Shown in pieces: positions 19,792 through 47,051 of a stretch of 64,000 nt of DNA. Made by a program: the position numbers and the translations under genes. Position 1 is the stretch's first letter. Every line of letters begins with the position of its first letter. The notes below the pieces were generated by a model. The model was given only the letters and a program-made list of their open reading frames with translations, did no database searches and was not told the origin of the DNA. Origin of the DNA: a virus; the IMG/VR virus record IMGVR_UViG_3300037244_000020, positions 1-64,000 of that record; one strand, given 5' to 3'.

Positions 19792-19824
19792 ATTGGACCT
19801 GACTAGGATCTGACCGTTAGATGA

Positions 19825-19877
19825 GCACGGAAAGCGGGCGGTCAAACCAGCTTTGTCGGGAGCAAGCCTATCCGTGC
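19825..19877 (-). ncRNA. cloverleaf leader RNA (C4-antisense-like), copy 1
   Basis: Closing stem GCACGGA/TCCGTGC; shares TAGG-N6-CCCGA(C)AAAGCTGG with 38974-39022; loop TGACCG complementary to downstream CGGTCA. Confidence 0.55.
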
Positions 19878-19893
19878 GGGTGAAACTATATCA

Positions 19894-21192
19894 TTAAACC
19901 GCTTCGAACATTTCCGGCACGATCGTATTCCGGGCGACTTCCCCGAACTCCGTGTGGTAAGTGATCGCCTGCGCGCTGCGCTCCGATACGTAGCCGCCCC
20001 GCGCTGAGTGGGCATCCCGCGCAGCTAGTGTGCGGTGCTGCACAACCGTGACGCCGTTGTGCTCTTTTTCGTCCTTATGATGCCGATGTCCCGTGTGGAT
20101 TGCGCGCTTGGTCGTCTTGCCCCACATCTCGGGAAACTGCGCCGCGAAGAGCAGCGGCAGTTGCTCGTTTTTCTTCAAATGCCCGTGGTGGAAACCCAGC
20201 ATGCTCGTACCGTGTTGATACGCGTAGTAAGGCAATTCCGAGTCTACGACGGTAATCCTCGGCTCGTTCTCGTACAGCGCTCGGAAAAGCGCCCTCAGCC
20301 ACAGCGACGACGCGAGATCATGATTTCCCTCCGCAAGGAGAACGACAACTTTGTCGTGTCTGGCGAGCGCGAAGTCCACAAGGCGGCGCAGCACCCGAAT
20401 GGCGACGCCTACAATCTTCGAATACCGCCCGTCTGCGTCCAAAACGAAACCGTGCGTCGGCGTTACGGGCAGCAGTCCATCGAAGTGTAGGAAGTCGCCG
20501 AGTTGCGCAATAAACGCGGTGCTGGCGGCGGGCGCCGCGTCAATCATGTACGAAAAAGCATTGACGAGCGTTCTTTCCGCAATTTCCAGGCTCCAGTCTG
20601 CGCCTGTTTCGGCTTTATCCGCGAGCGCGCCGAGGTGGTAGTCCGTGAACGTGTACAGGTTGCACAGCGTCTCGCTCGTATGCTCGGGAGCCTTTGTCGG
20701 TTTTAGCTTCGGTAGTGTCTGCGCCATCGCGTCGAACGCCTCGCGCATGATGGCTTCCTGCGCTGCCTGGTCGGCCGTCGTCTTCACCCACTGCGCTGTC
20801 GGCTTGCCGTCTTCGTTGTAATAGGTCGACACGCCCTTAACGACAAACCCATCGGGAACGGTATGCACCATATCGTGACTCGGCGCGTGCCCCATCCTAG
20901 CAGCGCGCTTTTTCAACGAATCCAGCGAGTTGCAGATCGTCCCTACACTGATCTTGAGCGCGCCCGCTGCAGCCCTCATGCCTCCGTGCTTCTCGACCGC
21001 CTCGATGATTTCGATTTGGCGCACAGTCGCAAATTGGATAAGCTCGGAGAGACCCTCTGGCGCATCCGAGCGAGTCGCGTCGCCCTTCATGTGGCGGCGT
21101 ACCGTCGCCTCGTCAACGCCCAATGCTTTGGCTGCTGCGCGGAAACTGCCGTGCTCGGCTACGGCATCTTGAAACTTCTTGAGTTTTGTCAC
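19894..21192 (-). CDS. tandem-HTH + calcineurin-like metallophosphoesterase
   Basis: Two HGxxRAAAxAL HTHs; TDYHLG, LGDFLH, EGNHD, HHGH and GHRHH motifs. Confidence 0.8.
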   Translation of the reverse strand: MTKLKKFQDAVAEHGSFRAAAKALGVDEATVRRHMKGDATRSDAPEGLSELIQFATVRQIEIIEAVEKHGGMRAAAGALKISVGTICNSLDSLKKRAARMGHAPSHDMVHTVPDGFVVKGVSTYYNEDGKPTAQWVKTTADQAAQEAIMREAFDAMAQTLPKLKPTKAPEHTSETLCNLYTFTDYHLGALADKAETGADWSLEIAERTLVNAFSYMIDAAPAASTAFIAQLGDFLHFDGLLPVTPTHGFVLDADGRYSKIVGVAIRVLRRLVDFALARHDKVVVLLAEGNHDLASSLWLRALFRALYENEPRITVVDSELPYYAYQHGTSMLGFHHGHLKKNEQLPLLFAAQFPEMWGKTTKRAIHTGHRHHKDEKEHNGVTVVQHRTLAARDAHSARGGYVSERSAQAITYHTEFGEVARNTIVPEMFEAV

Positions 21193-21270
21193 GCGAATTC
21201 CCCCGGCAGAACCGCTTGAATAACGGCTTTGCGCGGAGTATGCCGGAGTTTACAACTCGTTACAAGTTTG

Positions 21271-21495
21271 CTAGGCGAAGAAACCGCCCCAGCAGGTGAG
21301 GCACAGGACGACGACCGGCACGATTAGCGCGCCGAGGGTCGACATGGTTTGTACGATGGCGGGGTACTCCACCGCCTCCCGTTTCATCATCCCGCTCACG
21401 CGCTGATGCAGCGCTTTCTGATCCAGGCCCGTCCAGATGAACAGAAACAGGACCAGCAGAAACTGAGGAGCGCTCCAATGAGAGACATTAATCAT
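21271..21495 (-). CDS. two-TM membrane protein
   Basis: Two hydrophobic segments. Confidence 0.6.
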   Translation of the reverse strand: MINVSHWSAPQFLLVLFLFIWTGLDQKALHQRVSGMMKREAVEYPAIVQTMSTLGALIVPVVVLCLTCWGGFFA

Positions 21496-21962
21496 GGCTC
21501 ATATCTCGCTTTACTCGAAAATCCGCACAGCCAGTCAAGCGACACGTTCAAACGCTTGGCGACTTCCAGCAGTTGTTCGTACCTGGGGGATTCCTTGCGC
21601 TCCCAACTGCTTACCCTTTCGCGCCTCACGCCTAATAACTCAGCCATTTGCGGCTGCGTCATCCCGCGAACCTCGCGCTCTACCTGCATGCGATCGCTGA
21701 ACAGACTGGTGCGGTATCCGGCGCTCTTCTCTAGCTGGCGCGGCTCGTCGTTCACGCCCGCCAGATAGTCGACTGATATATCCAGCGCCTGCGCAATCGC
21801 GGTAAGCGTTTTATGGCTCGGCAGGTTGATGCCCGTCTCATAGGCTAATAGGCGCTCTACGCTGATGCCTGTTAAGTGGCTGATAAAGGCGATATCCATT
21901 ACGCGCAGCCTCCGCGCTTTTGTGAAGCGATGCCCGAAGGTTTCTATTTTGGGTGTGGTCAT
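21492..21962 (-). CDS. tandem XRE-family HTH regulator
   Basis: Two HTH_3 domains (..ISVDYLAG; MTQPQMAELLGV..VSLDWLCG). Confidence 0.85.
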   Translation of the reverse strand: MTTPKIETFGHRFTKARRLRVMDIAFISHLTGISVERLLAYETGINLPSHKTLTAIAQALDISVDYLAGVNDEPRQLEKSAGYRTSLFSDRMQVEREVRGMTQPQMAELLGVRRERVSSWERKESPRYEQLLEVAKRLNVSLDWLCGFSSKARYEP

Positions 21963-21973
21963 GCTGATGCTCC

Positions 21974-22288
21974 TTAATGCCTACAATCTGGGCAGTCGTC
22001 GGACCAGTCTCCGGTATAGCCATGAGGGCACCGGGCGCTTGCCCTTGCGGCAGCTTCGCGGATCGCTGTCATACTGCCCCCGTCCGGCTTTACCGGCGCC
22101 GGTCGCGCATCAGCTATCACGACGCGCGCCGTAGGCCGTACTCGGCCTGCCCATCCACACCAGGCGTGCTCGGTGTTACCCGCGAAGTATGCTCGATTCG
22201 GCTGCGACGCCAGTGCTGGAGTTAAGTCGTAGCCTCGCTCTCTGGCCCATACTTCGAAGCCTTTCCAATCGGTCGGATCGTGAATCAT
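21974..22288 (-). CDS. hypothetical protein with C-terminal CPHG..CPDC
   Basis: AAGGAG RBS. Confidence 0.65.
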   Translation of the reverse strand: MIHDPTDWKGFEVWARERGYDLTPALASQPNRAYFAGNTEHAWCGWAGRVRPTARVVIADARPAPVKPDGGSMTAIREAAARASARCPHGYTGDWSDDCPDCRH

Positions 22289-22524
22289 TCAGGTTTCTCC
22301 TTTTCGATCGCCGCATTCGCTTGCGCGGCTAGCAGCATATCTCGTTCCATCTCCGCCCGGCCGCAGGCACGCGAGACTCTCTCAAGCTGTGCGGCTGCAA
22401 AGTTCAGGCGGTCTTGCATTTCGTCGTATGCGTCTAACAAGTGGTGAACCTTTAGGCCCCAACCGCTGCACCCGCCAGTCTTGAGCGTTTCGCGGATTTC
22501 GGCAATGGCTTCGGCGTCAATCAT
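22285..22524 (-). CDS. hypothetical coiled-coil protein
   Basis: ATGA overlaps. Confidence 0.6.
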   Translation of the reverse strand: MIDAEAIAEIRETLKTGGCSGWGLKVHHLLDAYDEMQDRLNFAAAQLERVSRACGRAEMERDMLLAAQANAAIEKEKPE

Positions 22525-22679
22525 GGCTTCACCTTCAAGCATGTCCCGCTCGCGGCGTCGGTCGGGTCTTGTGCAGTTGCGAGTAATGCGCGCGCAAACC
22601 TAAGTACCGTCGGCTGGTTAAATACATAGCAGAACGGCACGACATCATCAAATAACTTCAAGATCTGTTCGTCGGTCAT
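22521..22679 (-). CDS. hypothetical protein (52 aa)
   Basis: Manual: MTDEQILKLFDD...FARALLA; ATGA overlaps on both sides. Confidence 0.55.
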   Translation of the reverse strand: MTDEQILKLFDDVVPFCYVFNQPTVLRFARALLATAQDPTDAASGTCLKVKP

Positions 22680-22900
22680 TTCACTTTCCCTTTCAGTGCG
22701 GCGCGCGCCAATCGTTCAGTCATCACGTCACGAAACACGCCCATTACTTGGCCTTGCTGCTGATTCAACAGGTACGGGGCGATGCGCCGGTGGAACTCGG
22801 CTTGCAAGTCATCCAGCCCTGGCGGGAGCGTCTGCGGCTGGCGCTTAGGCTGAGTCAGCCGTTGCGGGAGGTTGTCGCGAAATTCAAGGGCAGCGTTCAC
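22676..22900 (-). CDS. hypothetical protein
   Basis: AGGAG RBS. Confidence 0.6.
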   Translation of the reverse strand: MNAALEFRDNLPQRLTQPKRQPQTLPPGLDDLQAEFHRRIAPYLLNQQQGQVMGVFRDVMTERLARAALKGKVK

Positions 22901-23471: not shown

Positions 23472-23481
23472 GGCGTGGGTG

Positions 23482-23907: not shown

Positions 23908-23942
23908 CGTGACTCCCTGTCAGGCTCACAGCCAGTTAAAGG

Positions 23943-24203: not shown

Positions 24204-24446
24204 TTCGTAAGGAGTCCGTAAAAGTAATGGAAGTCGTAAATCGTGGCTGAGATACAAAGCGTCAAGATAGCCACGAAACAGGCTGCGAAAAAGTATTTCA
24301 TATTCGGTCCTTCCTTGCGCGGCGCCACAGGGAGCGGATACCCGCAGAGGCCGCCTCCAGCGCGCACAGCCAGCCTAAAAAGAAAACCGACAGCGGGATA
24401 ATCGTTGATGCGTTAAGCATACGTGTCTCCGTGTTTCAGTTATCTA

Positions 24447-24474
24447 ACTATAGCATATTTATTGTTTTGTGCAA
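24447..24474 (-). promoter_or_regulatory. early promoter TTGCAC-N16-TATAGT (extended -10)
   Basis: Family member. Confidence 0.7.
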
Positions 24475-24507
24475 GTGCCGAATGCGCTTTGTGGAGGGGT
24501 TAGGCGG

Positions 24508-24786: not shown

Positions 24787-24797
24787 GGTTTATTCCT

Positions 24798-25217: not shown

Positions 25218-25220
25218 GGC

Positions 25221-25499: not shown

Positions 25500-25532
25500 T
25501 TCTGTTACTCCGTGTCGGTTTCAATAGAGCTA

Positions 25533-25560
25533 ATTATACAGACTTTATTGTTTTGTACAA
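25533..25560 (-). promoter_or_regulatory. early promoter TTGTAC-N16-TATAAT
   Basis: Family member. Confidence 0.7.
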
Positions 25561-25586
25561 GTGCTGAATTGCCTTTATGCAGCGGG

Positions 25587-25842: not shown

Positions 25843-26004
25843 TCACACCCCTAAAAGATCGATCTTGGCTTGCTGGCGCGACACCTCCCAGAGGTCTGTG
25901 AGCAAGCGGTCTACTTCATCGGCGCTGTGTGCCTGGCGCAACTCAGATTGAATCTCTTGCTCCCGCTCTCGTAGCGCTGCGCTTACGCGTTCTTCAATGG
26001 TCAT
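25843..26004 (-). CDS. hypothetical protein, paralogue of 27765-27926
   Basis: MTIEERVSAALR...DLLGV. Confidence 0.7.
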   Translation of the reverse strand: MTIEERVSAALREREQEIQSELRQAHSADEVDRLLTDLWEVSRQQAKIDLLGV

Positions 26005-26444
26005 GGCTGGGACTCCTGCGTTCGGATGAGGGTAGCCAGCCAGTAAGGTACTTTGAAGCAGTGCGCGGTACTCCATTGCTCGGCGGCTCCGCCCCCATTA
26101 AACGGTCCGAAATACTCGAAACCGCTGATCGGGTCCCCAGCAATGACGATGGTTTGAGGCAGCGCTTCGCGCGCGAGTGCTTTCTTCGCGCAGCCTAGGG
26201 CACGCGCGGCCCCTGCTTGACCTTGGGTGCTCAGAATCACGACAACGTCACCCAGCGCTAGGTACAGCCGCTCTGCTTCGCTCGCAGGTTGCTCCGCCGC
26301 GTCTGACACGGGCTGCAAGTCCACAATCATCCGTATCTCATTGCCTAGGGCGGCCTGTCCGTATTTAACCGTCGCGTGAGAGTCCGCGAACGGGCCGTAG
26401 TATTTGTAACCGTTCGCGGGGTTGCCTGCTATGATGATTTTCAT
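26001..26444 (-). CDS. hypothetical protein, paralogue of 28174-28602
   Basis: Internal repeat GNPANGYKYYGPF / GDPISGFEYFGPF. Confidence 0.75.
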   Translation of the reverse strand: MKIIIAGNPANGYKYYGPFADSHATVKYGQAALGNEIRMIVDLQPVSDAAEQPASEAERLYLALGDVVVILSTQGQAGAARALGCAKKALAREALPQTIVIAGDPISGFEYFGPFNGGGAAEQWSTAHCFKVPYWLATLIRTQESQP

Positions 26445-26467
26445 TTCGTGGTTCCTAGGTGGATGGG

Positions 26468-26895: not shown

Positions 26896-27154
26896 TATCT
26901 TCCTCTGTTTGCATGTCGGCGCTCGGCTTGCCGTCTTCCCAATTAATCTCGATCAACAACACATCGCTACCGGGGATGAGTATGTCGTTTCCGTTCTGGT
27001 GGAGCAGCCACAGCACATCAGCGTCGTGCGAGAAGCCTTTAACCGTGCCGTACCCCTCGTTCTGCTTTGTGCAGACGCGAGCGGTATACTTGCGCCCGCT
27101 GTTTTGCTCGTCGGTCAGGATGCGGATTGCGTAATCTACTAGGGATGTGGTCAT
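26882..27154 (-). CDS. hypothetical protein, paralogue of 28669-28938
   Basis: MTTSLVDYAIRILTDEQN. Confidence 0.7.
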   Translation of the reverse strand: MTTSLVDYAIRILTDEQNSGRKYTARVCTKQNEGYGTVKGFSHDADVLWLLHQNGNDILIPGSDVLLIEINWEDGKPSADMQTEEDNEDW

Positions 27155-27585: not shown

Positions 27586-27705
27586 GATGTGTTCTCTGGG
27601 GTGTGCAACTACTAGATTAGGACGAGATGATGAGTACAAGGAGTGCAAGGGCGAAAGCGACAGCAACAAGCATCTTGTACCTCCGTGTTGTGTTTCGATG
27701 TAGCT

Positions 27706-27734
27706 ATTATGCAGAGGTTTTTAGTTCTGTGCAA
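27706..27734 (-). promoter_or_regulatory. early promoter TTGCAC-N17-CATAAT
   Basis: Family member. Confidence 0.75.
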
Positions 27735-27764
27735 CTGTTAAAACGCTTTGCGCAGCGACTTTCG

Positions 27765-27926
27765 TCACACTCCCAAAATATCCACTTTCGTCTGCTGGCG
27801 CGACAATTCCCACAGTTCCGCGAGCAACTCGTCTGCTACGCTGGCGCGTGGCTGTTCGCGCAATGCTGCTTGAATCTCCTGCTCGCGCATCCGCAGCGCT
27901 GCACTCACGCGTTCTTCAATGGTCAT
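27765..27926 (-). CDS. hypothetical protein, paralogue of 25843-26004
   Basis: MTIEERVSAALR...DILGV. Confidence 0.7.
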   Translation of the reverse strand: MTIEERVSAALRMREQEIQAALREQPRASVADELLAELWELSRQQTKVDILGV

Positions 27927-28171
27927 GCTCGCTTCTCCTTTCCCACCAGCGCCAGGCGCTGGCGCTTTGACTGAAGGCTTTCGATCCATTCTACAGCCGG
28001 GCGCGTGCCTTGGAAGAACACCTTTTGATCGTCGCTCTCCTTCGGGATGCGGTGCACGCCTGCAGCGCGGTTATCGACATAGAGGACATCGTAATGGGTC
28101 GGACTCTCCCCGATAACCTCTACCAGGACCAGCCAGCCGTCACGCTTGGCGAGGATTGTGCCGTGGGTCAC
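27923..28171 (-). CDS. hypothetical protein (present only in the second duplicated block)
   Basis: GTG start, ATGA overlap. Confidence 0.5.
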   Translation of the reverse strand: MTHGTILAKRDGWLVLVEVIGESPTHYDVLYVDNRAAGVHRIPKESDDQKVFFQGTRPAVEWIESLQSKRQRLALVGKEKRA

Positions 28172-28173
28172 GA

Positions 28174-28602
28174 TTACGCTTGCTCCGAAGGGCTGATGAG
28201 GGGAGCGAGCCAGTGCGACCCTTTGGGGCACTTCTCGTTACCCCATTTCTCCGCCGCGCTGGCGCCATTAAACGGTCCGAAATACTCGAAACCGCTGATC
28301 GGATTTCCGACGATAACGATAACTGGCGGCAGCTTCTCGGGGTGGCGCGCCTTTTTCGCAGTGTCCCGTGCGAGGTCCGTGTTGATGGGATAAGTGCTCA
28401 GAATCTCAACAACATCACCTAGCGCGATGCGCAGCCGCTCTGCTTCGATGAGGCTCTGTGGTATGCCGGACACGGGTTGAAGGGTCACAAGCATCCGATG
28501 ATTTGTATTCTCTTTGCAATACTTACGGGCAGCCTCTGCACCCGCAAACGGTCCGTAATACTGATAGCCATTTGCGGGGGTACCGTCTATGATGATTTTC
28601 AT
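28174..28602 (-). CDS. hypothetical protein, paralogue of 26001-26444
   Basis: MKIIIDGTPANGYQYYGPF. Confidence 0.75.
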   Translation of the reverse strand: MKIIIDGTPANGYQYYGPFAGAEAARKYCKENTNHRMLVTLQPVSGIPQSLIEAERLRIALGDVVEILSTYPINTDLARDTAKKARHPEKLPPVIVIVGNPISGFEYFGPFNGASAAEKWGNEKCPKGSHWLAPLISPSEQA

Positions 28603-28668
28603 TTGTGATTCCTTGTCAGTGGGGCTATTTCGCAGCGTTTAGCGGCATGTTTGCACGTATTGCAAGTC

Positions 28669-28938
28669 TTAGTCGTCTTCATCGACTTCTCCTGTCGGAT
28701 GCTTGCTCGGCTCGCCATCTTTCCACTGGATCTCGATCATCTCGACTGCGCTGCCCGGAGTGATCAAGTCATTTCCGTTCGCGGTGCGCAGCCAAAGCAC
28801 GTCGGCATCCCGTGAGAATCCCTCGACCGTGCCGTCTACCGTGCACAATTTCGTGGCGACGCGAACGGTATATTCGCGGCCGCAGTTTTGCTCGTCGGTC
28901 AGGATGCGGATGGCGTACTCTACTAGGGAGGTGGTCAT
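28669..28938 (-). CDS. hypothetical protein, paralogue of 26882-27154
   Basis: MTTSLVEYAIRILTDEQN. Confidence 0.7.
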   Translation of the reverse strand: MTTSLVEYAIRILTDEQNCGREYTVRVATKLCTVDGTVEGFSRDADVLWLRTANGNDLITPGSAVEMIEIQWKDGEPSKHPTGEVDEDD

Positions 28939-28996
28939 GGTGTTTTGTTCCGTGTTCGGTTTCGATAAGGCGTTATCGAAATGTCAAAATATACGT

Positions 28997-29626
28997 CTAA
29001 ACTAGGCCAGCTCCTCTCAGGTCCGCGCTGCTCAGGTCCGCGTAGCGCAGGTCCGCGCTGCTCAGGTTTGCGCCTTCCAGGTCCGCGTAGCTCAGGTCCG
29101 CGTAGCTCAGGTCCGCGCTGCTCAGGTTTGCGCCTTCCAGGTCCGCGTAGCTCAGGTCCGCGTAGCTCAGGTCCGCGTAGCGCAGGTCCGCGCCTCTCAG
29201 GTTTGCGCTGCTCAGGTCCGCGTAGCGCAGGTTTGCGCTGCTCAGGTCCGCGTAGCGCAGGTCCGCGCCTCTCAGGTTTGCGCCTTCCAGGTCCGCGTAG
29301 CGCAGGTCCGCGTAGCTCAGGTTTGCGTAGCGCAGGTTTGCGTAGCGCAGGTTTGCGTAGCTCAGGTTTGCGTAGCTCAGGTTTGCGTAGCTCAGGTTTG
29401 CGTAGCTCAGGTCCGCGTAGCTCAGGTTTGCGTAGCGCAGGTTTGCGTAGCGCAGGTTTGCGTAGCTCAGGTTTGCGTAGCTCAGGCCAGCTCCTCTCAG
29501 GTTTGCTCCTTCCAGGTCCGCGCCTTTTGCCACCGCAGCACCCGCTGTTACCGCTTCGGTATTGTTCGGGGCCTCGTGGCTGAACAAAACTTCTTGCGTC
29601 GTTCTATGTTTAATTTCGATTTTCAT
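28997..29626 (-). CDS. pentapeptide-repeat protein
   Basis: Over 30 A[DN]Lxx repeats. Confidence 0.9.
29005..29522. repeat. 15-bp coding tandem repeat
   Basis: Units such as CGTAGCTCAGGTTTG / CGTAGCGCAGGTCCG. Confidence 0.95.
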
Positions 29627-29703
29627 AGTTATCTCAGTACTGTTCTTTCAACGCATCGCGATAAGACGTTACCGCAATGACAAAGTTCGGTTTCGATGTA
29701 GCT

Positions 29704-29732
29704 ATTATTCCGTACTTTTTAGTTTTGTGCAA
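29704..29732 (-). promoter_or_regulatory. early promoter TTGCAC-N17-AATAAT
   Basis: Family member. Confidence 0.7.
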
Positions 29733-29768
29733 TCTTTAAATCGCTTTGTAGAGAGGATTGGCGCAGCG

Positions 29769-31739: not shown

Positions 31740-31805
31740 AAATAACTCCAATAAATTCAACTACTTATAAGTGCACTTTTTTGGTGCACTAGCAATGACA
31801 AGTAG

Positions 31806-32247
31806 TTAGCTGCATTCAATGTAGGCTAATGCCTATTTTTTAAGCACCGCTGCCTAATTTTTAAGCATTAGCCTACATTGAACGTAGCTAGGTTTTGCCT
31901 ATTTTTTAAGCATTAGCCTACATCAATGTAGGCTAATTCGGGTTTAGCCTACATTGATGTAGGCTAATTTAGGGTTAGCTGCATTCAATGTAGGCTAGTT
32001 TCCTTACAAAGCTGAGAGAGGCTCCCGAACGCCGTTGTAAGGAAACTCATGAGTGGCGTGAAAACAACGGGTTTTTAGCTGCACTCAATGTAGGCTAATG
32101 CCCGATTAGCCTACGTCAATGTAGGCTAATGCCTATTTTTTAAGCAAAAGCTAGCCTACGTCAATGTAGGCTAATGCCTATTTTTTAAGCAGGTGAGCGG
32201 AAAGCGTGCCTATTTTTTAGGCATTAGCCTACATTGAATGCAGCTAA
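31806..32247. repeat. nine 24-bp quasi-palindromes interleaved with six Fis-consensus 17-mers
   Basis: TTAGCCTACATCAATGTAGGCTAA variants at 31806, 31868, 31913, 31944, 31975, 32075, 32106, 32151, 32224; TGCCTAWTTTTTARGCA at 31830, 31851, 31896, 32130, 32175, 32207. Confidence 0.9.
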
Positions 32248-32435
32248 AAACTCCGAGTTGCGTCAGACGAACGCTGAAAAAATATGAAAAATATTTGGGC
32301 AACCTGCGAACAACCAGCCGAAAAAGAGGCCAGTGAAGAAAACCCCGCCCGTTGTCAAGAGACTTTCTTTGGTTGTCTCTGCGTCTTTCGGGAAGAGGAA
32401 GAGCGGTTTGTGGTGTTTGTGTTTGTGGTGCATGG

Positions 32436-33390: not shown

Positions 33391-33415
33391 CTCGTTTTCT
33401 CCAGTTGATGAAGCT

Positions 33416-33444
33416 ATTATATACGGCTTCCTAGTTTTGTGCAA
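33416..33444 (-). promoter_or_regulatory. early promoter TTGCAC-N17-TATAAT
   Basis: Family member. Confidence 0.8.
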
Positions 33445-33513
33445 CAACTAGTTACCTTAAATATGGGCGGCTCCCTTGACTCCCGCCTAGCACAAAACGA
33501 CACTCTCCGCATT

Positions 33514-34976: not shown

Positions 34977-35011
34977 GATGTTTGTTCCTTGTTTCTGGAT
35001 TCGATGTAGCT

Positions 35012-35040
35012 ATTATGCCTGGGTTTATAGTTTTGTGCAA
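35012..35040 (-). promoter_or_regulatory. early promoter TTGCAC-N17-CATAAT
   Basis: Family member. Confidence 0.8.
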
Positions 35041-35174
35041 GAACTATTTGCAGCTTGCCGTGTGATCGTAAAAGCCTGTCACGCTGGGGAAGTCTTGGTA
35101 AAAATCCCAGGCAGCGTGGATTGTGACGATAACGGCGATGTAGATGATGAGTGCGCGCATTTTAAATCTCGGGT

Positions 35175-35848: not shown

Positions 35849-35880
35849 TTTGTTTCCCTGCGTTTCGTTTCAGTAAAGCT

Positions 35881-35909
35881 ATTATGCCGTAGTTTTTAGT
35901 GAGGAGCAA
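35881..35909 (-). promoter_or_regulatory. early promoter TTGCTC-N17-CATAAT
   Basis: Family member. Confidence 0.7.
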
Positions 35910-35917
35910 GCGGAATT

Positions 35918-36322
35918 TTAGTCAGTATCTATGACACCCTCTAAGTACCTCAAGAATGACCCGCAGTGTTTGCAGCGCTTGCTCTCAGTACGCTTGAGGC
36001 GCTTGCGCGCTGCATATATCGCGTTAGACCCTATGCGCAGCGACCTAGCGACGTTTTCAATGCCCATTTCCGGGTCTTTAGACAGCAAGTCTAGTGCTAT
36101 CCTGGTTCGGCTTACCGCGGGCGCCCTGTTAGTTACCCGTGGTTCGAAATAGCCTGTGTAGCGGTTAGCTGGCTTGGCAGGATGACCTCTCATCCGCTCG
36201 GCAGAAAGCGCGCGGGAGATTAGCGATTGGGATACTCCGAGAAGCTGGCAGACCCTGTACTGCGTCATACCGGGGTTGTTCCGCAATATTTCTAAGGCTT
36301 GCTGAGTCTTACTTTTTTCCAT
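35918..36322 (-). CDS. double-HTH protein with C-terminal CxxC
   Basis: SKTQQALEIL..MTQYRVCQLLGVSQSLISRA; second repeat SRTRIALDLL; CKHCG. Confidence 0.7.
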   Translation of the reverse strand: MEKSKTQQALEILRNNPGMTQYRVCQLLGVSQSLISRALSAERMRGHPAKPANRYTGYFEPRVTNRAPAVSRTRIALDLLSKDPEMGIENVARSLRIGSNAIYAARKRLKRTESKRCKHCGSFLRYLEGVIDTD

Positions 36323-38472: not shown

Positions 38473-38910
38473 ATGTCCCGCGTCCCTCCCAGAAGCTGGA
38501 ACGAAACGTTCGGCACAGCCTACGAGCACCTCAAAGCTGGCCGACGTGCAGCGCGCCTTGGCTGGAACAGCAACCGGGTGTGGCTCGAAGCCCTAAGCGA
38601 TACCGCGACCGTCATCCTGCATAAGGACGGCGTGCGCACCGACTGGGTGCCGGATGCGGGCGATCTCATCAGCAACGATTGGCATGTCTTCCCACCCCTT
38701 GAAAGGAGCTTAACCATGACCACCACGCCTAGCAGAGAAGCCCGCGAAGTAGCAGCAAGCCGCCTTAGTCCCGCCAGCTACGCGAACGTCGACGACTATA
38801 TCGCGGCCGTCGACAAGCTCGCTCGGTATATCGAGCATGGCAACTTTAAGGACACCGACAACCAGCCACACGTCACCGCAGCAGTCACGAATGTGATGAA
38901 TGTTCGGTAA
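38473..38910 (+). CDS. DUF2829 / Tad2-like protein with C-terminal extension
   Basis: TFGTAYEHLKAGRRAARLGWN...WVPDAGDLISNDW. Confidence 0.75.
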   Translation: MSRVPPRSWNETFGTAYEHLKAGRRAARLGWNSNRVWLEALSDTATVILHKDGVRTDWVPDAGDLISNDWHVFPPLERSLTMTTTPSREAREVAASRLSPASYANVDDYIAAVDKLARYIEHGNFKDTDNQPHVTAAVTNVMNVR

Positions 38911-38933
38911 ATAACCCCGATTTAACCTCAACG

Positions 38934-38957
38934 AAACCGCCCACTGAGGCGGTTTCA
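38934..38957 (+). terminator. hairpin after the Tad2-like gene
   Basis: GAAACCGCC-CACTGA-GGCGGTTTC. Confidence 0.55.
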
Positions 38958-38973
38958 TGCTATTATAGCAACG

Positions 38974-39022
38974 CACGTCTAGGGTCATTCCCGAAAAGCT
39001 GGCTATCCACCGGCCTGACGTG
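38974..39022 (+). ncRNA. cloverleaf leader RNA (C4-antisense-like), copy 2
   Basis: CACGTC/GACGTG closing stem; GTCATTCCCGA complementary to TCGGGAATGAC over the ATG; TATCCAC complementary to GTGGATA. Confidence 0.6.
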
Positions 39023-39055
39023 TCTCCTCAGTGGATATCGATTGGGAAATCGGGA

Positions 39056-39907
39056 ATGACAGACCAGACAAACTGGCCCAAACGCGGTGACGGCATTTGT
39101 GGCATCTACGCGATTGAAAATCTCATCGACGGGAAGTTCTACGTCGGGCAGTCTGCGGACATGAGATCAAGGTGGGACGTTCACCTTTATATGCTCAGAA
39201 AAGGAACGGCGAGCACGAAATTGTTGCGCGCATGGCGAAAGCACGGTGCGGAGAATTTCAGGTTCTTTGCCGTGGAAGAATGCTCAGTCGAAGATCTTAC
39301 AGCGCGAGAGCAAGCGTGGATCGACACGTTCGACGCTGTGAAGAAGGGCTACAATATCAGTCCCTTGGCGAATTGCACGCGCGGGGTGAAGCACACGGCC
39401 GAGGCCCGCGCTAACATGTCAAAGGCGCAACTTGAGATAAACTCACGCCCCGGCGCAAAGGAGCGACGAGTAGCTGTGGCAACGAAGGCTTGGGAAGACC
39501 CGGATGCTTTAGCCCGAAAGAGCGCGGCCAGCAAGAAATCAAGGAACAAGCCAGAGGCAAAGGCCAGGCAATCCAAGGTATCAAAGGACCAGTGGGCAGA
39601 CCCGGAAGGCAGGGAGCGTCGTCTGGATGCCTTAGTAAAGTGGTGGGCAGACCCTGACGCGAAAGCTAGTAGGCTAATGCTCCTGCAGAGTGGACGCACC
39701 CCAGAGGTAGAGGCGCAAAGGAAGGAGGCCGCAAAGGCAGCGAGGAGAGCCAGTGCGATCCTCGCTGTGGAAGACGTCTTGGAGATCCGCGCCAGATACG
39801 TATTCCGATGTCCGGCAAATGGAGGGAAAGCACTCGCAAAGGAGTTCGGAGTGTCCAACACGTACATCAGCAACATTATCGTGCGAAAGGTTTGGAAGGA
39901 CATCTAA
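39056..39907 (+). CDS. free-standing GIY-YIG homing endonuclease
   Basis: GIYAIENLIDGKFYVGQS..RW..H..REQAWID..GYN; NUMOD3-like KHTAEARANMSKA; C-terminal HTH. Confidence 0.9.
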   Translation: MTDQTNWPKRGDGICGIYAIENLIDGKFYVGQSADMRSRWDVHLYMLRKGTASTKLLRAWRKHGAENFRFFAVEECSVEDLTAREQAWIDTFDAVKKGYNISPLANCTRGVKHTAEARANMSKAQLEINSRPGAKERRVAVATKAWEDPDALARKSAASKKSRNKPEAKARQSKVSKDQWADPEGRERRLDALVKWWADPDAKASRLMLLQSGRTPEVEAQRKEAAKAARRASAILAVEDVLEIRARYVFRCPANGGKALAKEFGVSNTYISNIIVRKVWKDI

Positions 39908-39947
39908 TGCTACAATGCGGGAAATTAAGCTACAAAGGCTCCCCGCA

Positions 39948-41420
39948 ATGAATTTGAGTCTTCATCAACGCCAATCAGAAGCTTTCACTTCGAAAGCGAC
40001 GGAGATTTTGTATGGGGGCGGGTGGTGCCTCTGCTAGAAGGTTTGGCAGAGGCACCACCCGCCTTCTTCAATGAGCGCCGCAGGCGGAGGCAAGTCCCAT
40101 TTGCTTCGCGTAGCGTCGATCGCATGGTGTGCCGACATTCCGGGCATCCAAATAGCCCTGTTCCGCAGGCTCAGTGACGACATCACGAAGAACCATTTAA
40201 CTGGGGTTTCCGGGTATCCCGAGCTTCTGGCCGACTGGGTGAAGGCAGGGCATGTGAAAATCAATTTTTCGGCCCGTACAATAACTTTTTGGAACGGGTC
40301 GAAGATCCATCTTTGTCACTGCCAGTACGAGTCCGACGTATCGAAGTATCAGGGAGCAGAGTTCCAAGTTGAAATGTTTGACGAGGGAACCCACTTCTCC
40401 GAGACCATCTACAGGTACCTGCGAGGGCGGCTGCGCATGGGCGCACTGAAACTCCCGGAAAAGTATGTTGGGATGTTTCCCCGGATTTTGATAGGGTCGA
40501 ATCCTGGATCGGTCGGGCATGCCTGGGTCAAAGCGTCTTTCGTTGACATGGCGCCCCCGATGGAACTGGTGCAAATGCCGAAAAACGAAGGGGGTCTCAT
40601 TCGGCAGTTCATACCCGCGAAACTGGAAGACAACCCGACGTTGATGGAAAGCGATCCGATGTATGCGGATCGCTTGGAGGGTCTCGGTCGACCTGAACTC
40701 GTCAAAGCCCTTCGTGACGGGGACTGGAACATAGTTGCAGGGGGTATGTTCGACGACGTGTTCTCTACTAAGCACCAAGTTCTTGCCCCCTTCGAGATTC
40801 CTCGCACCTGGAGGATCGACAGGTCATTTGATTGGGGTTCAGGAAAACCCTTCGCGGTGTTGTGGTTCGCCGAGTCAGACGGGTCGTCCGTTCGCCTTGC
40901 AGACGGCTCCGAGCGTAACTTCCCACGAGGGTCGATCTTCCAGATCTCTGAGTGGTATGGCAGTAACGGCAAACCCAATGAGGGTCTGCGCATGATGAAT
41001 GCGGAAATTGCACGCGGCGTGAAGGAGCGCGATTTAGCTATGAAGCGCATCGTCCATGCTGGCCCCGGCGACAACTCGATAAATGACGTAATCAACGGCA
41101 CGAGCATTGCAGACGAGATGGCGCGTGCGCCGAATTACATCCGCTGGACGCCATCTGACAAGAACCCAGGCAGCCGGAAGCACGGGTGGGACATCCTGCG
41201 AAAGCTGCTGAAGAACGCAATTGATAGGCCGCTGGAAGAGCCGGGTTTCTACATTTTCGACACCTGTCGAAACACGATCCGTACGCTTCCGGTCTTACCT
41301 CGCCACGCCACCAAAGACGGGGATCTTGACTCCGACGCGGAAGACCATATTGCAGATGCAATTCGCTACCGTGTCTCCGCCAAAAAACGCACGATGACCG
41401 TCAGCGGCCTCGCTATATAA
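39948..41420 (+). CDS. terL: terminase large subunit, interrupted at Walker A by a 57-nt in-frame insert containing TAG (40035-40037)
   Basis: 39948 frame gives ..EAFTSKATEILYGG; same frame resumes AAGGGKS; FDEGTHF Walker B, GSNPG, DWG and EDHIADAIRY nuclease motifs. Confidence 0.88.
40020..40076 (+). other. 57-nt intervening sequence (candidate ribosomal bypass element)
   Basis: 18-bp perfect stem 40017-40034/40046-40063, TAG in loop, GCG at both junctions. Confidence 0.75.
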
Positions 41421-41444
41421 TCGCGGAAAATCACAGGACGAAAC

Positions 41445-42998: not shown

Positions 42999-43965
42999 TA
43001 TGAGACCCGCCTTCGCCACCGCTGTAGCTGCTTTGTTCATCGACCACGGAGTGCGTTTGGTCCAGACGGCGGATGGTCTGACGCAAGACGCCAACGACCG
43101 TTTAAGAGAAGCCGCTGATGTGATTGGGGCGCTTCTGCTCGCCACCGACTTCTCGAACTCGACGGACGTGACCAGCACGCTTGTGATCATCAAGTCGACC
43201 ATCGAGGATGCCTATCAGCAGATCGCTGCGGAATCTTCAAAAAGTCTTTCGGGCCTGCCCGCCATAGAATCACAGTTCGTCGTCTCGGCGATCAACAAGG
43301 AAGCCGAGCAGGTTTTGATGCGGTCTCCTCGCCTGACCGTGACCGAGCCACACCTCGATGGCGTTCCGGTCTCGGCCTGGTGGGATGCGCAACAGAAAGA
43401 CACGGTCGCAAAACTCGTAGCGACCGTGCGCGTCGGCATCACGGCAGGGCGGGTAGCCCAGGAGATTGCGAACATGATGGTCGCGGCGAACGGGCCAATG
43501 GCAGGAGCGATGAGGAACGCTGAGACGCTCACGCACACCGCCGTGCAGCGCGTCGCGATGGATACGCGCAACGCGGTGCTGACTGCCAATAAGAGTGTCG
43601 TAGAAGGGCTGCAGGTCGTCGCCGTGCTCGACTCACGGACTTGCGCGCAGTGTCTGGCCTACGACGGGGCGACTTACGATCGCAGCGGCGAGCCAGTTGG
43701 CGACACGACGCTGCCGTTTAACGGAGGGCCAGCCTTTCACTTTCATTGCCGATGCGGTACGGTGCCGATCTTCCTCGACCAGCCGCCTCCCGAGAAGCTA
43801 ACCGCCGAAGCGTGGCTCGACAGTCGTACCGAAGCGCAGCAAGACGACATGCTCGGGGAAGGGCGCGCTGCACTCTACCGGAAGGGAAGTTTGACGCTCA
43901 GAGATTTGGTTTCTGGGACAGGAACTCAACTTTCTCTAGCGCAACTTAGAGAAAAGTACAACTGA
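42991..43965 (+). CDS. minor head morphogenesis protein (SPP1 gp7 / Mu F-like)
   Basis: VLDSRTCAQC..HFHCRCG. Confidence 0.85.
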   Translation: MIDMRPAFATAVAALFIDHGVRLVQTADGLTQDANDRLREAADVIGALLLATDFSNSTDVTSTLVIIKSTIEDAYQQIAAESSKSLSGLPAIESQFVVSAINKEAEQVLMRSPRLTVTEPHLDGVPVSAWWDAQQKDTVAKLVATVRVGITAGRVAQEIANMMVAANGPMAGAMRNAETLTHTAVQRVAMDTRNAVLTANKSVVEGLQVVAVLDSRTCAQCLAYDGATYDRSGEPVGDTTLPFNGGPAFHFHCRCGTVPIFLDQPPPEKLTAEAWLDSRTEAQQDDMLGEGRAALYRKGSLTLRDLVSGTGTQLSLAQLREKYN

Positions 43966-43996
43966 TTCTGTAAAATTTGGTATGATGCGGGCATTT

Positions 43997-44078
43997 GCTA
44001 GCGTGTGGACACAGGCTAGCGCAACGGGCGGGATCGCCTTTTATTTAAAGCCGGATGGCTGAAGGAAAGCTGGACATG
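43997..44078 (+). promoter_or_regulatory. scaffold 5' leader with three GGAY-loop hairpins
   Basis: TGT-GGAC-ACA, GGCG-GGAT-CGCC, AGCC-GGAT-GGCT. Confidence 0.55.
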
Positions 44079-44891
44079 AAGCTCAAGCTCGACGAAGAAG
44101 GTCACGCAGTACTGGTGGACGGTAAGCCGGTTTATGTGCATGACGACGGTAAAGAAATTCCGTTCGATGCAGCGCGTACGGTGGAAACGATCAGCCGCCT
44201 GAATGGCGAAGCGAAGAACCACCGGGAAGCGAAGGAAGCGGCAGAGACTCAATTGGGCGCGATGAAGGATCAGGTCAAGGTGTTTGAAGGTCTGGACCCG
44301 AAGTCGGCGCGCGAGGCACTGCAAAAGCTCAAAGACATCGGCGACGGCAAGCTCATCGAAAGCGGCAAGTTGGACGAAGTGCGCTCGGCAGCAACGAAAG
44401 AATACGAAGTGCGGCTCGCAGCGCTGCAAGCTGAGTATGGCGAGAAGGAAGGCAAGCTGGTAGCAGACCGCGAGGCGCTGCAAGGCCATCTGAATAACGA
44501 GATCATTGGCGGTAGCTTCGCGCGTTCGAAGTTTATCCAAGAGAAGATCGCGGTACCGGTGGACATGATTCAGGCGACGTTTGGCAAGAATTTCAAGGTA
44601 GAAGACGGTAAACTGGTGGCGGTGGATGCGCAGGGCAACAAGATTTTCTCGCGCGCCCGGCCAGGTGAGTTGGCAGATTTCGACGAAGCGATGGGTTCGC
44701 TCGTCGAGCAGTACTCCAGTCGAGACCATATTCTGAAGGCTTCGGGAGCAAGCGGCTCGGGGGCGGCCGCTTCGGCAGGGGGTAGTGGCAGTAAGGACGG
44801 CAAGAGCATGACGCGAACGGCGTTTAATCAGCTTCATCCAATGGACCAGATGAAGACGATCAAATCCGGGGTCAAGATTGCGGACGAATAA
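44076..44891 (+). CDS. capsid scaffolding protein (DUF6651-like)
   Basis: MKLKLDEEGHAVLVDGKPVYVHDDGKE..; coiled coil; upstream of MCP. Confidence 0.82.
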   Translation: MKLKLDEEGHAVLVDGKPVYVHDDGKEIPFDAARTVETISRLNGEAKNHREAKEAAETQLGAMKDQVKVFEGLDPKSAREALQKLKDIGDGKLIESGKLDEVRSAATKEYEVRLAALQAEYGEKEGKLVADREALQGHLNNEIIGGSFARSKFIQEKIAVPVDMIQATFGKNFKVEDGKLVAVDAQGNKIFSRARPGELADFDEAMGSLVEQYSSRDHILKASGASGSGAAASAGGSGSKDGKSMTRTAFNQLHPMDQMKTIKSGVKIADE

Positions 44892-44906
44892 TTTTTCAAA
44901 AGAGGA

Positions 44907-46058
44907 TTGACCACTGTGGCAAATACACTGACCGGGCTTCTCCCGACTCTTTATGAATCGCTGGATATCGTTTCGCGAGAGCAGGTCGGGTTCATCCCGT
45001 CTGTCGCGATGGACGCGAGCGCCGAACGTGCAGCGGTGGGTCAACAGATCCTCGTTCCGATCACGCCGGCGTCGCAGTCCTACGCCGTCACGCCGGGTGT
45101 GACCGCACCGAACACGGGGGATCAGATCATCGGTAACACGCCGATCACGATCTCGGCGTCCAACGCAGTGGCGATTCGCTGGAACGGTGAAGAACAGCGC
45201 GGCATCAACACTGGCCCAGGCTACACGAACATCAAGAACAACCAGATCGTGCAGGCGATGCGCACGCTGTGCAATGGCATCGAACTGCTGGTTGCGCAGA
45301 CGGCCTACCTCGGTGCGTCGCGGGCAAGCGGCACTGCAGGCGCTACGCCGTTCGCGTCGGATCTGTCGGCAACCGCCAATTCGCGCAAGATTCTGGCGGA
45401 TAACGGCGCACCGCTGTCGGACATCCATCTGACGATGAACACGACCGCTGGCGCGAAAATGCGCACGCTGACGCAATTGACGAAGGCGAATGAAGCAGCC
45501 GACGACACGATGCTGCGTCAAGGTGTACTGCTCGACGTCCATGGCTTCGAGATCCGTGAATCGGCACAGATCCAGTCGACGACCAAGGGCACGGGTGCTA
45601 GTTACGTGACCAACGGTGCGGCGGTAGTCGGCCAGACTGTGATCCCTCTGATTACGGGTACGGGCACGATTGTTGCTGGTGATGTCGTAACTTTCGCAGG
45701 GGATCCGAACCTCTACGTGGTGGCGGCGGGCGGCGGCATTGCTGCTCCGGGGTCTATCACGATCAACAAGCCGGGTCTTCTGACGAATGTTTCCGGCAGT
45801 ACCGCCGTTACGGTTGGAGGCTCGTATACGCCGAACTTGGCCTATCACCGAAATTCAATCGCGTTGGTCACGCGCAGCCCCGCGCTCCCCATCGAAGGGG
45901 ATATGGCGGTGGACCGGGTGACGATCATCGACCCGCGCAGCGGCTTGGCATTCGATGTTGCGCAATATTTACAATATCGTCAGGTGTTGACGGAAATCTC
46001 GATTGCGTACGGCGTGGCTGTCATAAAGCCAGAACATGTGACGACGCTTTTGGGCTAG
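44907..46058 (+). CDS. major capsid protein (P22 coat-like)
   Basis: ANTLTGLLPTLYESLDIVSREQVGFIP..AYGVAVIKPEH; TTG start with AGAGGA. Confidence 0.9.
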   Translation: MTTVANTLTGLLPTLYESLDIVSREQVGFIPSVAMDASAERAAVGQQILVPITPASQSYAVTPGVTAPNTGDQIIGNTPITISASNAVAIRWNGEEQRGINTGPGYTNIKNNQIVQAMRTLCNGIELLVAQTAYLGASRASGTAGATPFASDLSATANSRKILADNGAPLSDIHLTMNTTAGAKMRTLTQLTKANEAADDTMLRQGVLLDVHGFEIRESAQIQSTTKGTGASYVTNGAAVVGQTVIPLITGTGTIVAGDVVTFAGDPNLYVVAAGGGIAAPGSITINKPGLLTNVSGSTAVTVGGSYTPNLAYHRNSIALVTRSPALPIEGDMAVDRVTIIDPRSGLAFDVAQYLQYRQVLTEISIAYGVAVIKPEHVTTLLG

Positions 46059-46074
46059 TAGCCTAGTCTCACTG

Positions 46075-46114
46075 AAAACCCTCCGCAGTGGAAGTTGCGG
46101 AGGGTTTTGTTTTT
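46075..46114 (+). terminator. intrinsic terminator after MCP
   Basis: AAAACCCTCCGCA..TGCGGAGGGTTTTGTTTTT. Confidence 0.85.
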
Positions 46115-46130
46115 CTGTAGTATTGCAGTC

Positions 46131-46184
46131 GGAGGTGAACGGGCCGGCCAGCCCTTTCGGTGCTCATTCCACTGAATAGCCTCC
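46131..46184 (+). ncRNA. cloverleaf leader RNA, copy 3
   Basis: GGAGG/CCTCC closing stem; loop CTCATTC complementary to GAATGAG overlapping the RBS (46200-46206). Confidence 0.55.
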
Positions 46185-46214
46185 AAATTTCAAATAATCG
46201 AATGAGGATTTCAA

Positions 46215-47051
46215 GTGAACTACCAGAAGCATTACGATACGCTGATCGATCGCGCCCGAAACCGTAAGCTTTCAGGGTATAAGGAACGCCATCACGTCAT
46301 CCCTCGCTGTATGGGCGGGAGCGATGACAAGTCAAATCTTGTGGAGTTGCTGGCGGAAGAGCATTTCGTGGGCCATCTTCTGTTGGCGCGCATCCACCCG
46401 GAAAACAGAAAGTTGGTGTTCGCTGCGAACATGATGCTGATGAACAGCCCGATGCATCATGGCGCTCGATCCAGGAACAAGAGGCATGCGTGGCTTAGAA
46501 AGGCACACGCCGAGGCAGCAAGAGCTACGCATCTAGGAGTTCCAAAGTCCCCTGAACACGTCGCCAAGGTAAGCCGGGCATTGACGGGTAAGCCAGGAAC
46601 GCGGCGAGGGGCGGTCACTGCGGAGGAAACCAAGGCGAAGCAGTCCGCAGCAGCCTTCGCTAGACCTGACAAGGCTGAAAATGACGAGAAGATGCGGGAA
46701 GGCTACGCAAGGATGACGCCACAGGAGCGTACGGCGCAGGCGGGTAAGGCATGGGATACAAAGCGCGCCAACGGGAAAGATAGGGACACGCCAGAGACGA
46801 GGGCCAAGAAAAGCACGGCGGGCAGGGAGCGCTCTCAGAGAGAAACCTCAGAGGAGAAAACCGCCCGAGCTTTGAAGGCTGCAGAGTCACGCCGCCGTAA
46901 CGGAAGTGACAAAGCTACGCCTGAATCCCGAGAGCGTATGCGCCAAGCCCATCTCGGGAAGAAACAATCCTTGGAAACCGTCGCCAAACGTAAAGCCACT
47001 ATAGCACGCAATAAAGCGCTCAAGGCTGTTACAATGCCGGAAAACACCTGA
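46215..47051 (+). CDS. HNH homing endonuclease with NUMOD3-like repeats
   Basis: ERHHVIPRCMGGSDDKSNLVELLAEEHFVGHLLL. Confidence 0.9.
   Translation: MNYQKHYDTLIDRARNRKLSGYKERHHVIPRCMGGSDDKSNLVELLAEEHFVGHLLLARIHPENRKLVFAANMMLMNSPMHHGARSRNKRHAWLRKAHAEAARATHLGVPKSPEHVAKVSRALTGKPGTRRGAVTAEETKAKQSAAAFARPDKAENDEKMREGYARMTPQERTAQAGKAWDTKRANGKDRDTPETRAKKSTAGRERSQRETSEEKTARALKAAESRRRNGSDKATPESRERMRQAHLGKKQSLETVAKRKATIARNKALKAVTMPENT

Follow-up and report, generated by a model that had tools for sequence, protein, structure and literature searches.

Conserved RNA leaders with loops complementary to downstream ribosome-binding regions in an uncultured peat phage

The first 64 kb of the 90.8-kb genome of an uncultured peat phage (IMG/VR record IMGVR_UViG_3300037244_000020; these 64,000 nucleotides (nt) are the window of the present study) hold three short cloverleaf-like elements, referred to here as copy 1 (19824..19878, minus strand), copy 2 (38972..39024, plus strand) and copy 3 (46131..46184, plus strand), all of which sit in short intergenic gaps. 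Comparison with their homologues identifies the elements as genuine, conserved RNA leaders. The mechanism best supported, and one that we regard as probable, is that of a cis-acting anti-Shine-Dalgarno loop that would be occupied in part by a decoy and in part by the ribosome site, and that would keep translation low. New in this work are the sub-family of copy 1, which is invisible to Rfam, the uncatalogued family of copy 3 and the exact swapping of open reading frames (ORFs) behind one orthologous leader. The genome has direct terminal repeats and a G+C content of 57.7%. Among the sequencing runs listed for this stretch, two are DNA runs of peat metagenomes, which may be its source, and none is an RNA run.

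Copies 1 and 2 are relatives of the int-alpA RNA

The original prediction, made from the window alone, described at these three sites a closing stem around two small hairpins, with segments complementary to sites downstream, and both the elements and all of the complementarities were found where it had placed them, in the window sequence and in duplex checks. It had also pointed to a string shared by copies 1 and 2, TAGG-N6-CCCGA(C)AAAGCTGG, which indeed occurs only at these two places in the whole phage. Scanning IMG/VR with the string common to both copies gave 21 loci, approximately 17 of which carry the whole element including the closing stem and a variable hairpin loop. Rfam labels these loci int-alpA (RF02996) with scores of 36-48 bits, and six of the eight loci scanned exceed the gathering score. 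In a second IMG/VR scan, 55 members had their closing stem intact; removal of redundancy left 49, from which a covariance model (R1) was built. When R1 was run on the whole phage, copies 2 and 1 were the two best matches, with 50.4 bits (E 2.4e-12) and 26.5 bits (E 2.7e-5) respectively, and copy 3 was unmatched. The Rfam model RF02996 aligns with copy 2 over its full length (1-71) with 31.9 bits and an E-value of 3.4e-5, which is under the gathering score of 35.8; the orthologues of copy 2 in two related phages (L195 and L196) score 29.1 and 27.1 bits. No Rfam model, RF02996 included, matched copy 1 at E≤10, and Rfam at gathering thresholds gave no match in the window. Nor were any tRNA or tmRNA genes found in the window, and public phage records held nothing alike around copies 2 and 3 and just a match to the exonuclease gene near copy 1.

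The 49-member alignment has 94.4% of its cells paired. A P2 pair that the search pattern had left free is paired in all 49 members with six pair types, and in the closing stem (P1) and the small hairpin (P1a) both double changes and G-U pairs are numerous, so that the transcribed strand is fixed. The predicted arrangement of a closing stem with two hairpins is thus borne out by covariation, both in these 49 members and in the separate family of copy 3 described below. The junction strings of int-alpA, CUAG, CGAAAAGC and CCUG, are all present in copy 2, and copy 1 has AUAG, CGAcAAAGC and CUUU, the last replacing CCUG.

The P2 loop of int-alpA is complementary to two separate downstream sites, which we call T1 and T2, and the Rfam consensus itself has a 3' tail (AgGG) complementary to the loop (CCuU) that corresponds to T1. 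The longest Watson-Crick run between loop and site averaged 5.53, compared with 3.82 ± 0.27 for loops permuted among loci, and the run at a second, non-overlapping site averaged 4.39, compared with 2.19 ± 0.29. Duplex energies were -6.1 kcal/mol for the T1 zone and -7.4 kcal/mol for the T2 zone, against -3.1 and -5.05 kcal/mol after permutation. The earlier claim that loop and target vary together therefore holds across the family by both measures. The geometry is also regular: T1 starts 5-8 nt past the 3' strand of P1 (P1') in 29 of 34 members, the gap between T1 and T2 is 6-8 nt, T2 ends at a median of 6 nt before the start codon, and the start codon lies 27-38 nt past the element in 40 of 47. 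T2 occupies the Shine-Dalgarno position and covaries with the loop even when it is not Shine-Dalgarno-like (UGGAC, UGAAC, GAGCA). As both sites use overlapping parts of one loop, T1 and T2 would compete for it.

A TAnnnT box was found no more than 8 nt upstream of the element in 22 of the 49 members, compared with 7.0 ± 2.3 in shuffled sequences, and the corresponding boxes of the window copies are TGATATAGT, TGCTATTAT and TTGCGG-N17-TAGTAT. With a -10-like box about 7 nt upstream, the RNA probably begins at P1.

We also tallied 46 non-redundant proteins encoded behind int-alpA members. Thirteen are nucleases (with an HNH, endonuclease VII-type or GIY-like domain), two are of the Rha/antirepressor type, four are small proteins of phrog_16513 and three belong to phrog_7144; there is one helicase, one O-like replication initiator and one ParB-like protein, and the remainder are without assignment. 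The module is therefore portable and nuclease-enriched, not nuclease-restricted, which upholds the portability that had been proposed as far as the int-alpA relatives are concerned. The two members that precede Rha/antirepressor-type genes (L080:7584-7643 and L083:3804-3861; phrog_518 and phrog_63) stand before the class of gene that C4 of phage P1 controls, which may hint at a deeper tie between the two RNA families. We count int-alpA among the 224 candidates that Weinberg et al. presented in 2017, although the main text of that paper (PMC5737381) does not carry the name, and a search of the literature found no published function for it. At 6875-6898 (plus strand), within a coding region of the window, a lone GAAAAGC-hairpin resembles int-alpA in P2 only (18.1 bits, E about 0.01), probably by chance.

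Copy 1 defines a sub-family that Rfam does not detect

Copy 1, assigned to an int-alpA sub-family by R1, lies on the minus strand between an SbcD-like exonuclease gene fused to a helix-turn-helix (HTH) domain (stop 19894) and the gene for a protein of 219 amino acids (aa) (19132..19791, minus strand; ATG 19791). Its P1 pairs 19877-19871 with 19831-19825 and is followed by UAG, a short P1a and CGAcAAAG, and its P2 of 8 bp, with a single U-C mismatch, presents the loop UUUGACCG at 19846-19839. Both sites are present: T1 (CGGUCA, 19811..19816, minus strand), which starts 8 nt past P1', is complementary over 6 nt to the loop's 3' half, and T2 (GUCAGGUCC, 19795..19803, minus strand), complementary to the 5' half, occupies the position of the ribosome-binding site (RBS) 3 nt before the ATG. 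The duplex of the loop with the T1 zone has an energy of -10.8 kcal/mol and that with T2 one of -6.0 kcal/mol. An extended -10-like box read from the sequence (TGA-TATAGT, 19885..19893, minus strand) overlaps the end of the exonuclease gene and itself ends 7 nt before P1, and relatives in the sub-family have TATAAT at an equal distance from the leader.

Five further members make up this sub-family, the marks of which are CGACA in the junction, the loop UUUGACCG and a P2 of 8 bp. Their P1 and P2 helices contain compensatory changes, and T1 is kept as (C)GGUC and T2 as GUCA(A/G)GG. Four precede GIY-YIG genes (L203/L278/L286, which are one phage, and also L281 and L282), and another (L285) precedes a homologue of the 219-aa gene of the window. 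It had been proposed that each of the three elements stands ahead of an endonuclease-type gene; this is so for copy 2 (GIY-YIG) and copy 3 (HNH), but the 219-aa gene behind copy 1 is no demonstrable nuclease. Its product contains repeated Cys/His zinc-ribbon-like modules, has no Pfam match and matches only PHROGs of unknown function; three weak homologues were found, and the Atlas gave weak leads. In 80 relatives of the exonuclease gene the leader was not found at the downstream site, so the leader and the 219-aa gene are, by comparison with these, specific to this phage at that position. The exonuclease gene itself (19894-21192, minus strand; 'DNA repair exonuclease', phrog_704 at 1.2e-122) encodes an N-terminal LysR-type HTH domain (PF00126 at 5e-11), and most of its relatives align only from approximately residue 50.

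Unrelated nuclease genes are exchanged behind the copy 2 leader

The gap that holds copy 2 runs from a Tad2-like gene and a hairpin to a GIY-YIG homing-endonuclease gene (39056..39907, plus strand; 283 aa, PF01541 at 1.6e-11, phrog_314), which is followed by the large terminase. By its matches to RF02996 and R1 the leader is a divergent int-alpA RNA, in which P1 pairs 38974-38979 with 39017-39022 and is followed by CUAG, P1a (GGG/CCC) and CGAAAAG, and P2 (GCUGG/CCGGC) carries its loop at 39003-39010 and is followed by CCUG. T1 (GUGGAUA, 39031..39037, plus strand) is complementary over 7 nt to loop positions 39004-39010, starts 7 nt past P1', gives a duplex of -6.1 kcal/mol and is kept in both L195 and L196. 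T2 is a degenerate site (GAUUGGG, 39040..39046, plus strand), which in the orthologues reads GAUAGGG and pairs with the 5' part of the loop. In addition, an 11-nt segment over the ribosome site and the ATG (39050..39060, plus strand) is a perfect complement of 38984-38994, i.e. P1a and the junction, with a duplex energy of -20.1 kcal/mol. This 11-bp helix is present in the minimum-energy fold of the whole copy 2 5' untranslated region, at -36.2 kcal/mol compared with -26.1 kcal/mol for the enforced leader fold.

Upstream of the leader, a hairpin with a 9-bp stem (38933..38956, plus strand), kept in L195 and L196, is probably a terminator, which the terminator scan does not call because it has no T-run. 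An extended -10-like box read from the sequence (TGC-TATTAT, 38958..38966, plus strand) ends 6-8 nt before P1, where the orthologues have TGCTATTGT, and would be a candidate promoter element.

L195 and L196 are related phages, with capsid proteins 76% and 79% identical to that of the window. In both, an island corresponding to window positions 38929-39056/39075 is conserved with 78-81% identity, comprising the hairpin, promoter box, leader, T1 and T2 up to the start codon, and its flanks are otherwise unrelated (the stretches that match within or beyond window 38929-39910 are L195:1458-1603 and, on the reverse strand, L196:1458-1585 and 2101-3029). The ORFs behind this orthologous leader are unrelated to one another, being GIY-YIG in the window, endonuclease VII-type in L195 and HNH_3-type in L196. 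Homology breaks exactly at the GIY-YIG ATG and, in L196, is back at 39910, three bases past the GIY-YIG stop. As one leader is kept with three unrelated nuclease ORFs, the copy 2 leader appears to behave as a stable expression slot with ORF-precise replacement of cassettes. No close relatives of the GIY-YIG protein were found in IMG/VR. The gene directly 5' of copy 2 (38473-38910) has a Tad2-like (Thoeris anti-defence 2) domain (PF11195 at 1.4e-11) and is not kept at the orthologous site in L195 or L196. A near-perfect inverted repeat at 40017-40063, just ahead of the start of the large-terminase ORF (40071), gave an R1 match on both strands and an inverted blastn match to L196.

Copy 3 represents an uncatalogued family

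The capsid gene is followed by an intrinsic terminator (46075..46108, plus strand; terminator scan), and copy 3 lies between this and an HNH homing-endonuclease gene (46215..47051, plus strand; GTG 46215, 278 aa, phrog_655 at 2.6e-51 and a weak NUMOD3 match). It matched neither Rfam (E≤10) nor R1, and its identification is based on homologues and covariation. P1 of 6 bp is followed by GAAC, P1a of 4 bp, U, P2 of 7 bp with a 7-nt loop at 46163-46169, and then UA; these junctions (GAAC / U / UA) are entirely unlike those of int-alpA. Homologues were obtained as L173/L185, L171/L186 and L187, two by way of capsid-gene relatives and one by a metagenome scan, and the two capsid-relative phages have the same leader and HNH gene after the capsid terminator. 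The resulting family of four sequences has 98.9% of its cells paired and compensatory changes in every helix, with nine pairs changed on both sides. As copy 3 is a separate sequence family, the three elements are not one module in three copies, and in this respect the original proposal of a single portable module does not stand.

The loop is complementary over 7 nt to GAAUGAG (46200..46206, plus strand), in the Shine-Dalgarno region 8 nt before the GTG, with a duplex energy of -8.2 kcal/mol, compared with +1.6 kcal/mol for the T1 zone. Copy 3 therefore has a T2-type site only, without a decoy site. Loop and target read CUCAUUC/GAAUGAG, CUCGUUC/GAACGGG, CUCACGU/ACGUGAG and UUGCAC/GUGCAA in the family, and four of the seven loop-target pairs are changed on both sides. 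The leader is preceded by a -10-like TAGTAT (46118..46123, plus strand), 7 nt before P1 and kept in L186 and L187, which stands 17 nt after a -35-like TTGCGG (46095-46100) overlapping the terminator; together the two boxes would make a putative promoter.

A covariance model of this family (R2) recovered copy 3 as the sole strong match in the window (83.8 bits), did not match copies 1 and 2, and found only its training members among 95 other loci. Comparison with homologues supports all three elements, copies 2 and 1 through R1 and copy 3 through the covariation in its own family. A pattern search of metagenomes and 185,579 genomes added one further true member (L187) and no true site among the 185,579 genomes, the other hits being chance matches in coding sequence with 20-29 bits, compared with 77-84 bits for true members. 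Where relatives of the capsid gene stand without the HNH gene, the leader is missing too, and among relatives of the HNH protein elsewhere none has a copy 3 leader.

Proposed mechanism and its alternatives

We infer from these patterns that the loop pairs with its sites in the RNA and that this pairing would lower translation. Each element would form the 5' leader of its own short transcript, with the RNA start at P1 as suggested by the -10-like box, and would fold into a three-way junction of P1, the small hairpin P1a and P2, the last displaying a loop of 7-9 nt. This loop would be the antisense determinant for the ribosome-binding region (T2) of the gene approximately 30 nt downstream. In copies 1 and 2, T1, 5-8 nt past the element, would be a decoy; because it is a second, near-isoenergetic complement, the loop may sit on either T1 or T2. 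With the loop on T1 the ribosome site would be free, with the loop on T2 it would be occluded, and the balance between the two would fix a low level of translation. Copy 3, with its T2 site only, would be a plain anti-Shine-Dalgarno leader, and in copy 2 the off state would gain strength from the 11-bp helix that joins P1a to the start codon. By analogy, C4 of phage P1 with its a2 and b2 sites and the T4-type sequestration of ribosome sites may be regarded as precedents.

Several observations weigh against this mechanism. If T1 always won in cis, the ribosome site would be left open, which bears on the direction of control. The single-sequence folds of the three leaders are no better than those of shuffled sequences (z from -0.1 to -1.85), so that significance rests on the homologues and not on thermodynamics, and the permutation tests overstate independence because related sequences share loops and targets by descent. 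A consensus scan calls no full sigma-70 promoter at any of the three sites. The junction nucleotides of int-alpA are very strongly conserved, which a plain antisense loop does not explain. In copy 2, T2 has a mismatch with the loop, and the 11-nt match over the GIY-YIG start, which had been part of the original prediction and is present, is specific to this phage and is not kept in the two orthologous leaders of L195 and L196.

The layout would also suit action in trans in the manner of phage P1 C4, the element being released, through termination or processing after P1', as a small RNA whose loop blocks T2 (and T1) on full-length mRNAs; the mRNAs of the same or a co-infecting phage would then be hit, with delayed shut-off or a kind of immunity as the outcome. 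Such a reading agrees with the Rfam type of int-alpA ('Gene; sRNA'), with the long U-run directly after a GC-rich P1 in several members (for example L010, L028, L036 and L047), with the annotation of C4 in the phage P1 record as a discrete 77-nt misc_RNA (48343-48419) acting on sites of the c4-icd-ant mRNA, and with the two of 46 members that precede Rha/antirepressor-type genes. However, after P1' a U-run is absent from all three copies of the window and the terminator scan calls no terminator there, each loop is specific to its own gene, copies are few per phage, and a cis target approximately 10 nt away should beat any trans partner; we consider trans action unlikely. It is very unlikely that the three-way junction is instead a sensor, moving the loop from T1 to T2 or back in response to a ligand, an ion or a protein, as a riboswitch or protein-responsive switch does. 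The downstream genes have no common metabolic theme, the copy 3 family keeps the architecture with wholly different junctions, and we know of no candidate partner, even though the two states are near-isoenergetic and the junction nucleotides, according to Rfam's independent consensus, hardly vary among phages of great diversity, a conservation that a scaffold alone would not require.

Two further alternatives assign the conservation to something other than ribosome access. 5'-terminal stem-loops are known stabilisers of mRNA, the elements begin at the likely 5' end of the transcript, and T1 is near enough for a compact pseudoknot, so P1 and a loop-T1 pseudoknot could shield a short nuclease mRNA while leaving ribosome access uncontrolled. 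This would leave unexplained a second site at the Shine-Dalgarno position that covaries with the same loop, non-Shine-Dalgarno sequences included, and likewise copy 3, the sole target of which is the ribosome site, and we find it quite improbable. Conservation might also be at the level of DNA, where the leader would assist the exchange of cassettes as a landing pad, as a homology arm or as a region recognised by a nuclease, with an incidental RNA fold; for this one can cite the copy 2 island between unrelated flanks and the three nuclease ORFs swapped from start codon to stop. The compensatory changes, strand-specific G-U pairs and covariation of loop and site are, however, signatures of RNA, so that as a full explanation this is highly improbable; it may hold beside an RNA function rather than replace it.

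Wider meaning

On a broader reading, which we put forward tentatively, int-alpA-type leaders and their copy 3-like cousins could be widespread programmable devices that set the level of translation, the loop toggling between decoy and RBS, and provide a slot for exchanged nuclease ORFs; some factor of the host or the phage may also recognise the invariant junction. If this were true, an orphan Rfam motif would gain a function, and the leaders would be a riboregulator distinct from both C4 and simple sequestering hairpins. The covariation of loop, T1 and T2 provides int-alpA with a concrete mechanism, open to mutational tests, and a conserved RNA device would be tied to the way in which free-standing homing endonucleases are expressed beyond the T4 paradigm. 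The finding of one slot with three unrelated nuclease ORFs is relevant to the question of how phage genomes tolerate selfish genes and exchange them, and the short modular design, in which the loop and two sites are changed together, could serve as a programmable translation attenuator. There is also a gap in Rfam, as its present model misses the copy 1 sub-family and the whole copy 3 family.

Other features of the window

Several features of the window lie apart from the three leaders. A promoter-like repeat of 50-65 nt occurs at 6597-6629, 10500-10552, 24434-24466, 25520-25572, 27686-27750, 29685-29748, 33396-33453, 34992-35056 and 35862-35925; read on the minus strand it shows TTGCAC-N17-CATAAT and then a conserved AGCTAC box, and the repeats probably mark early promoters of the phage. 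A gene-free stretch at 31788-32250 is dense in palindromes of about 22-24 bp (TAGCCTACATCAATGTAGGCTA and variants), several of them 31 bp apart, and may be an operator, origin or iteron array. Approximately 660 nt at 28929-29588 have a strict 15-nt period, with 28 registers and 60-82% identity; this stretch falls inside the overlapping ORFs 28981-29583 (plus strand) and 28997-29626 (minus strand), and would encode a pentapeptide-repeat protein. In addition, small minus-strand genes form a diverged tandem duplication with 73-79% identity (25843-26446 and 27765-28604; also 26921-27154 and 28705-28938).

Comparison with known systems

Copies 1 and 2 are closest to int-alpA RF02996. Copy 2 is a full-length counterpart with P1, CUAG, P1a, CGAAAAGC, P2 and CCUG, copy 1 has the fold as a whole and retains the 5' half, and both have the loop-complementary 3' tail (T1) that is absent from copy 3. 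They differ from the catalogued family in that copy 2 scores below the gathering threshold and the Rfam model is blind to copy 1. Moreover, Rfam describes a small RNA near integrase and alpA genes, whereas in the window and the 49 IMG/VR members int-alpA is a promoter-proximal leader approximately 30 nt before an ORF, often that of a homing endonuclease.

The C4 RNA of phages P1 and P7 (RF01695, clan CL00128), which was invoked in the original prediction, has proved an apt analogy. As in the window elements, a closing stem surrounds two adjacent hairpins, and antisense RNA and targets lie on one transcript. In the annotated phage P1 record a2 lies 4 nt after c4, directly 3' of the RNA, and b2 lies 10 nt before the icd ATG, over the ribosome site of the next gene, both being annotated as repressing icd/ant translation; this layout is strikingly like that of T1 and T2. 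The loop of C4 hairpin 2, UCACUAAC, pairs with b2, GUUAGUGA. A family relationship was nevertheless rejected: sequence similarity does not link the families, and none of the Rfam models C4, c4-2 and c4-a1b1 matched around any of the copies at E≤10, where copies 1 and 2 proved to be int-alpA relatives, or in eight int-alpA loci at E≤1, whereas phage P1 c4, the positive control, scored 68.8 bits with the C4 model and 51 bits with c4-a1b1. C4 has a 17-bp closing stem and is processed by RNase P. It uses two determinants (a' in the 3' junction and b' in a loop) for two sites, where int-alpA has one loop and two competing sites; the only window element with two separate determinants is copy 2 (P2 loop with T1, and P1a with the ATG region), in which the second is not conserved. 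The targets also differ, those of C4 being icd/ant and not nucleases.

In T-even phages, hairpins sequester the ribosome site of homing-endonuclease genes (I-TevI, I-TevII, I-TevIII, segB and Aeh1 mobE) and hold translation down; these hairpins are simple and local, and relief comes when a late promoter starts inside the hairpin (PMC2988022). The 11-bp helix over the ATG in copy 2 would be of the same kind. In copy 2, however, the -10-like box lies upstream of both helix arms, and a nested helix of this sort is absent from copies 1 and 3. In contrast with the T-even arrangement, the putative promoter boxes of the window precede the whole device, the loop would be carried on a conserved three-way junction, and a decoy would compete with the ribosome site.

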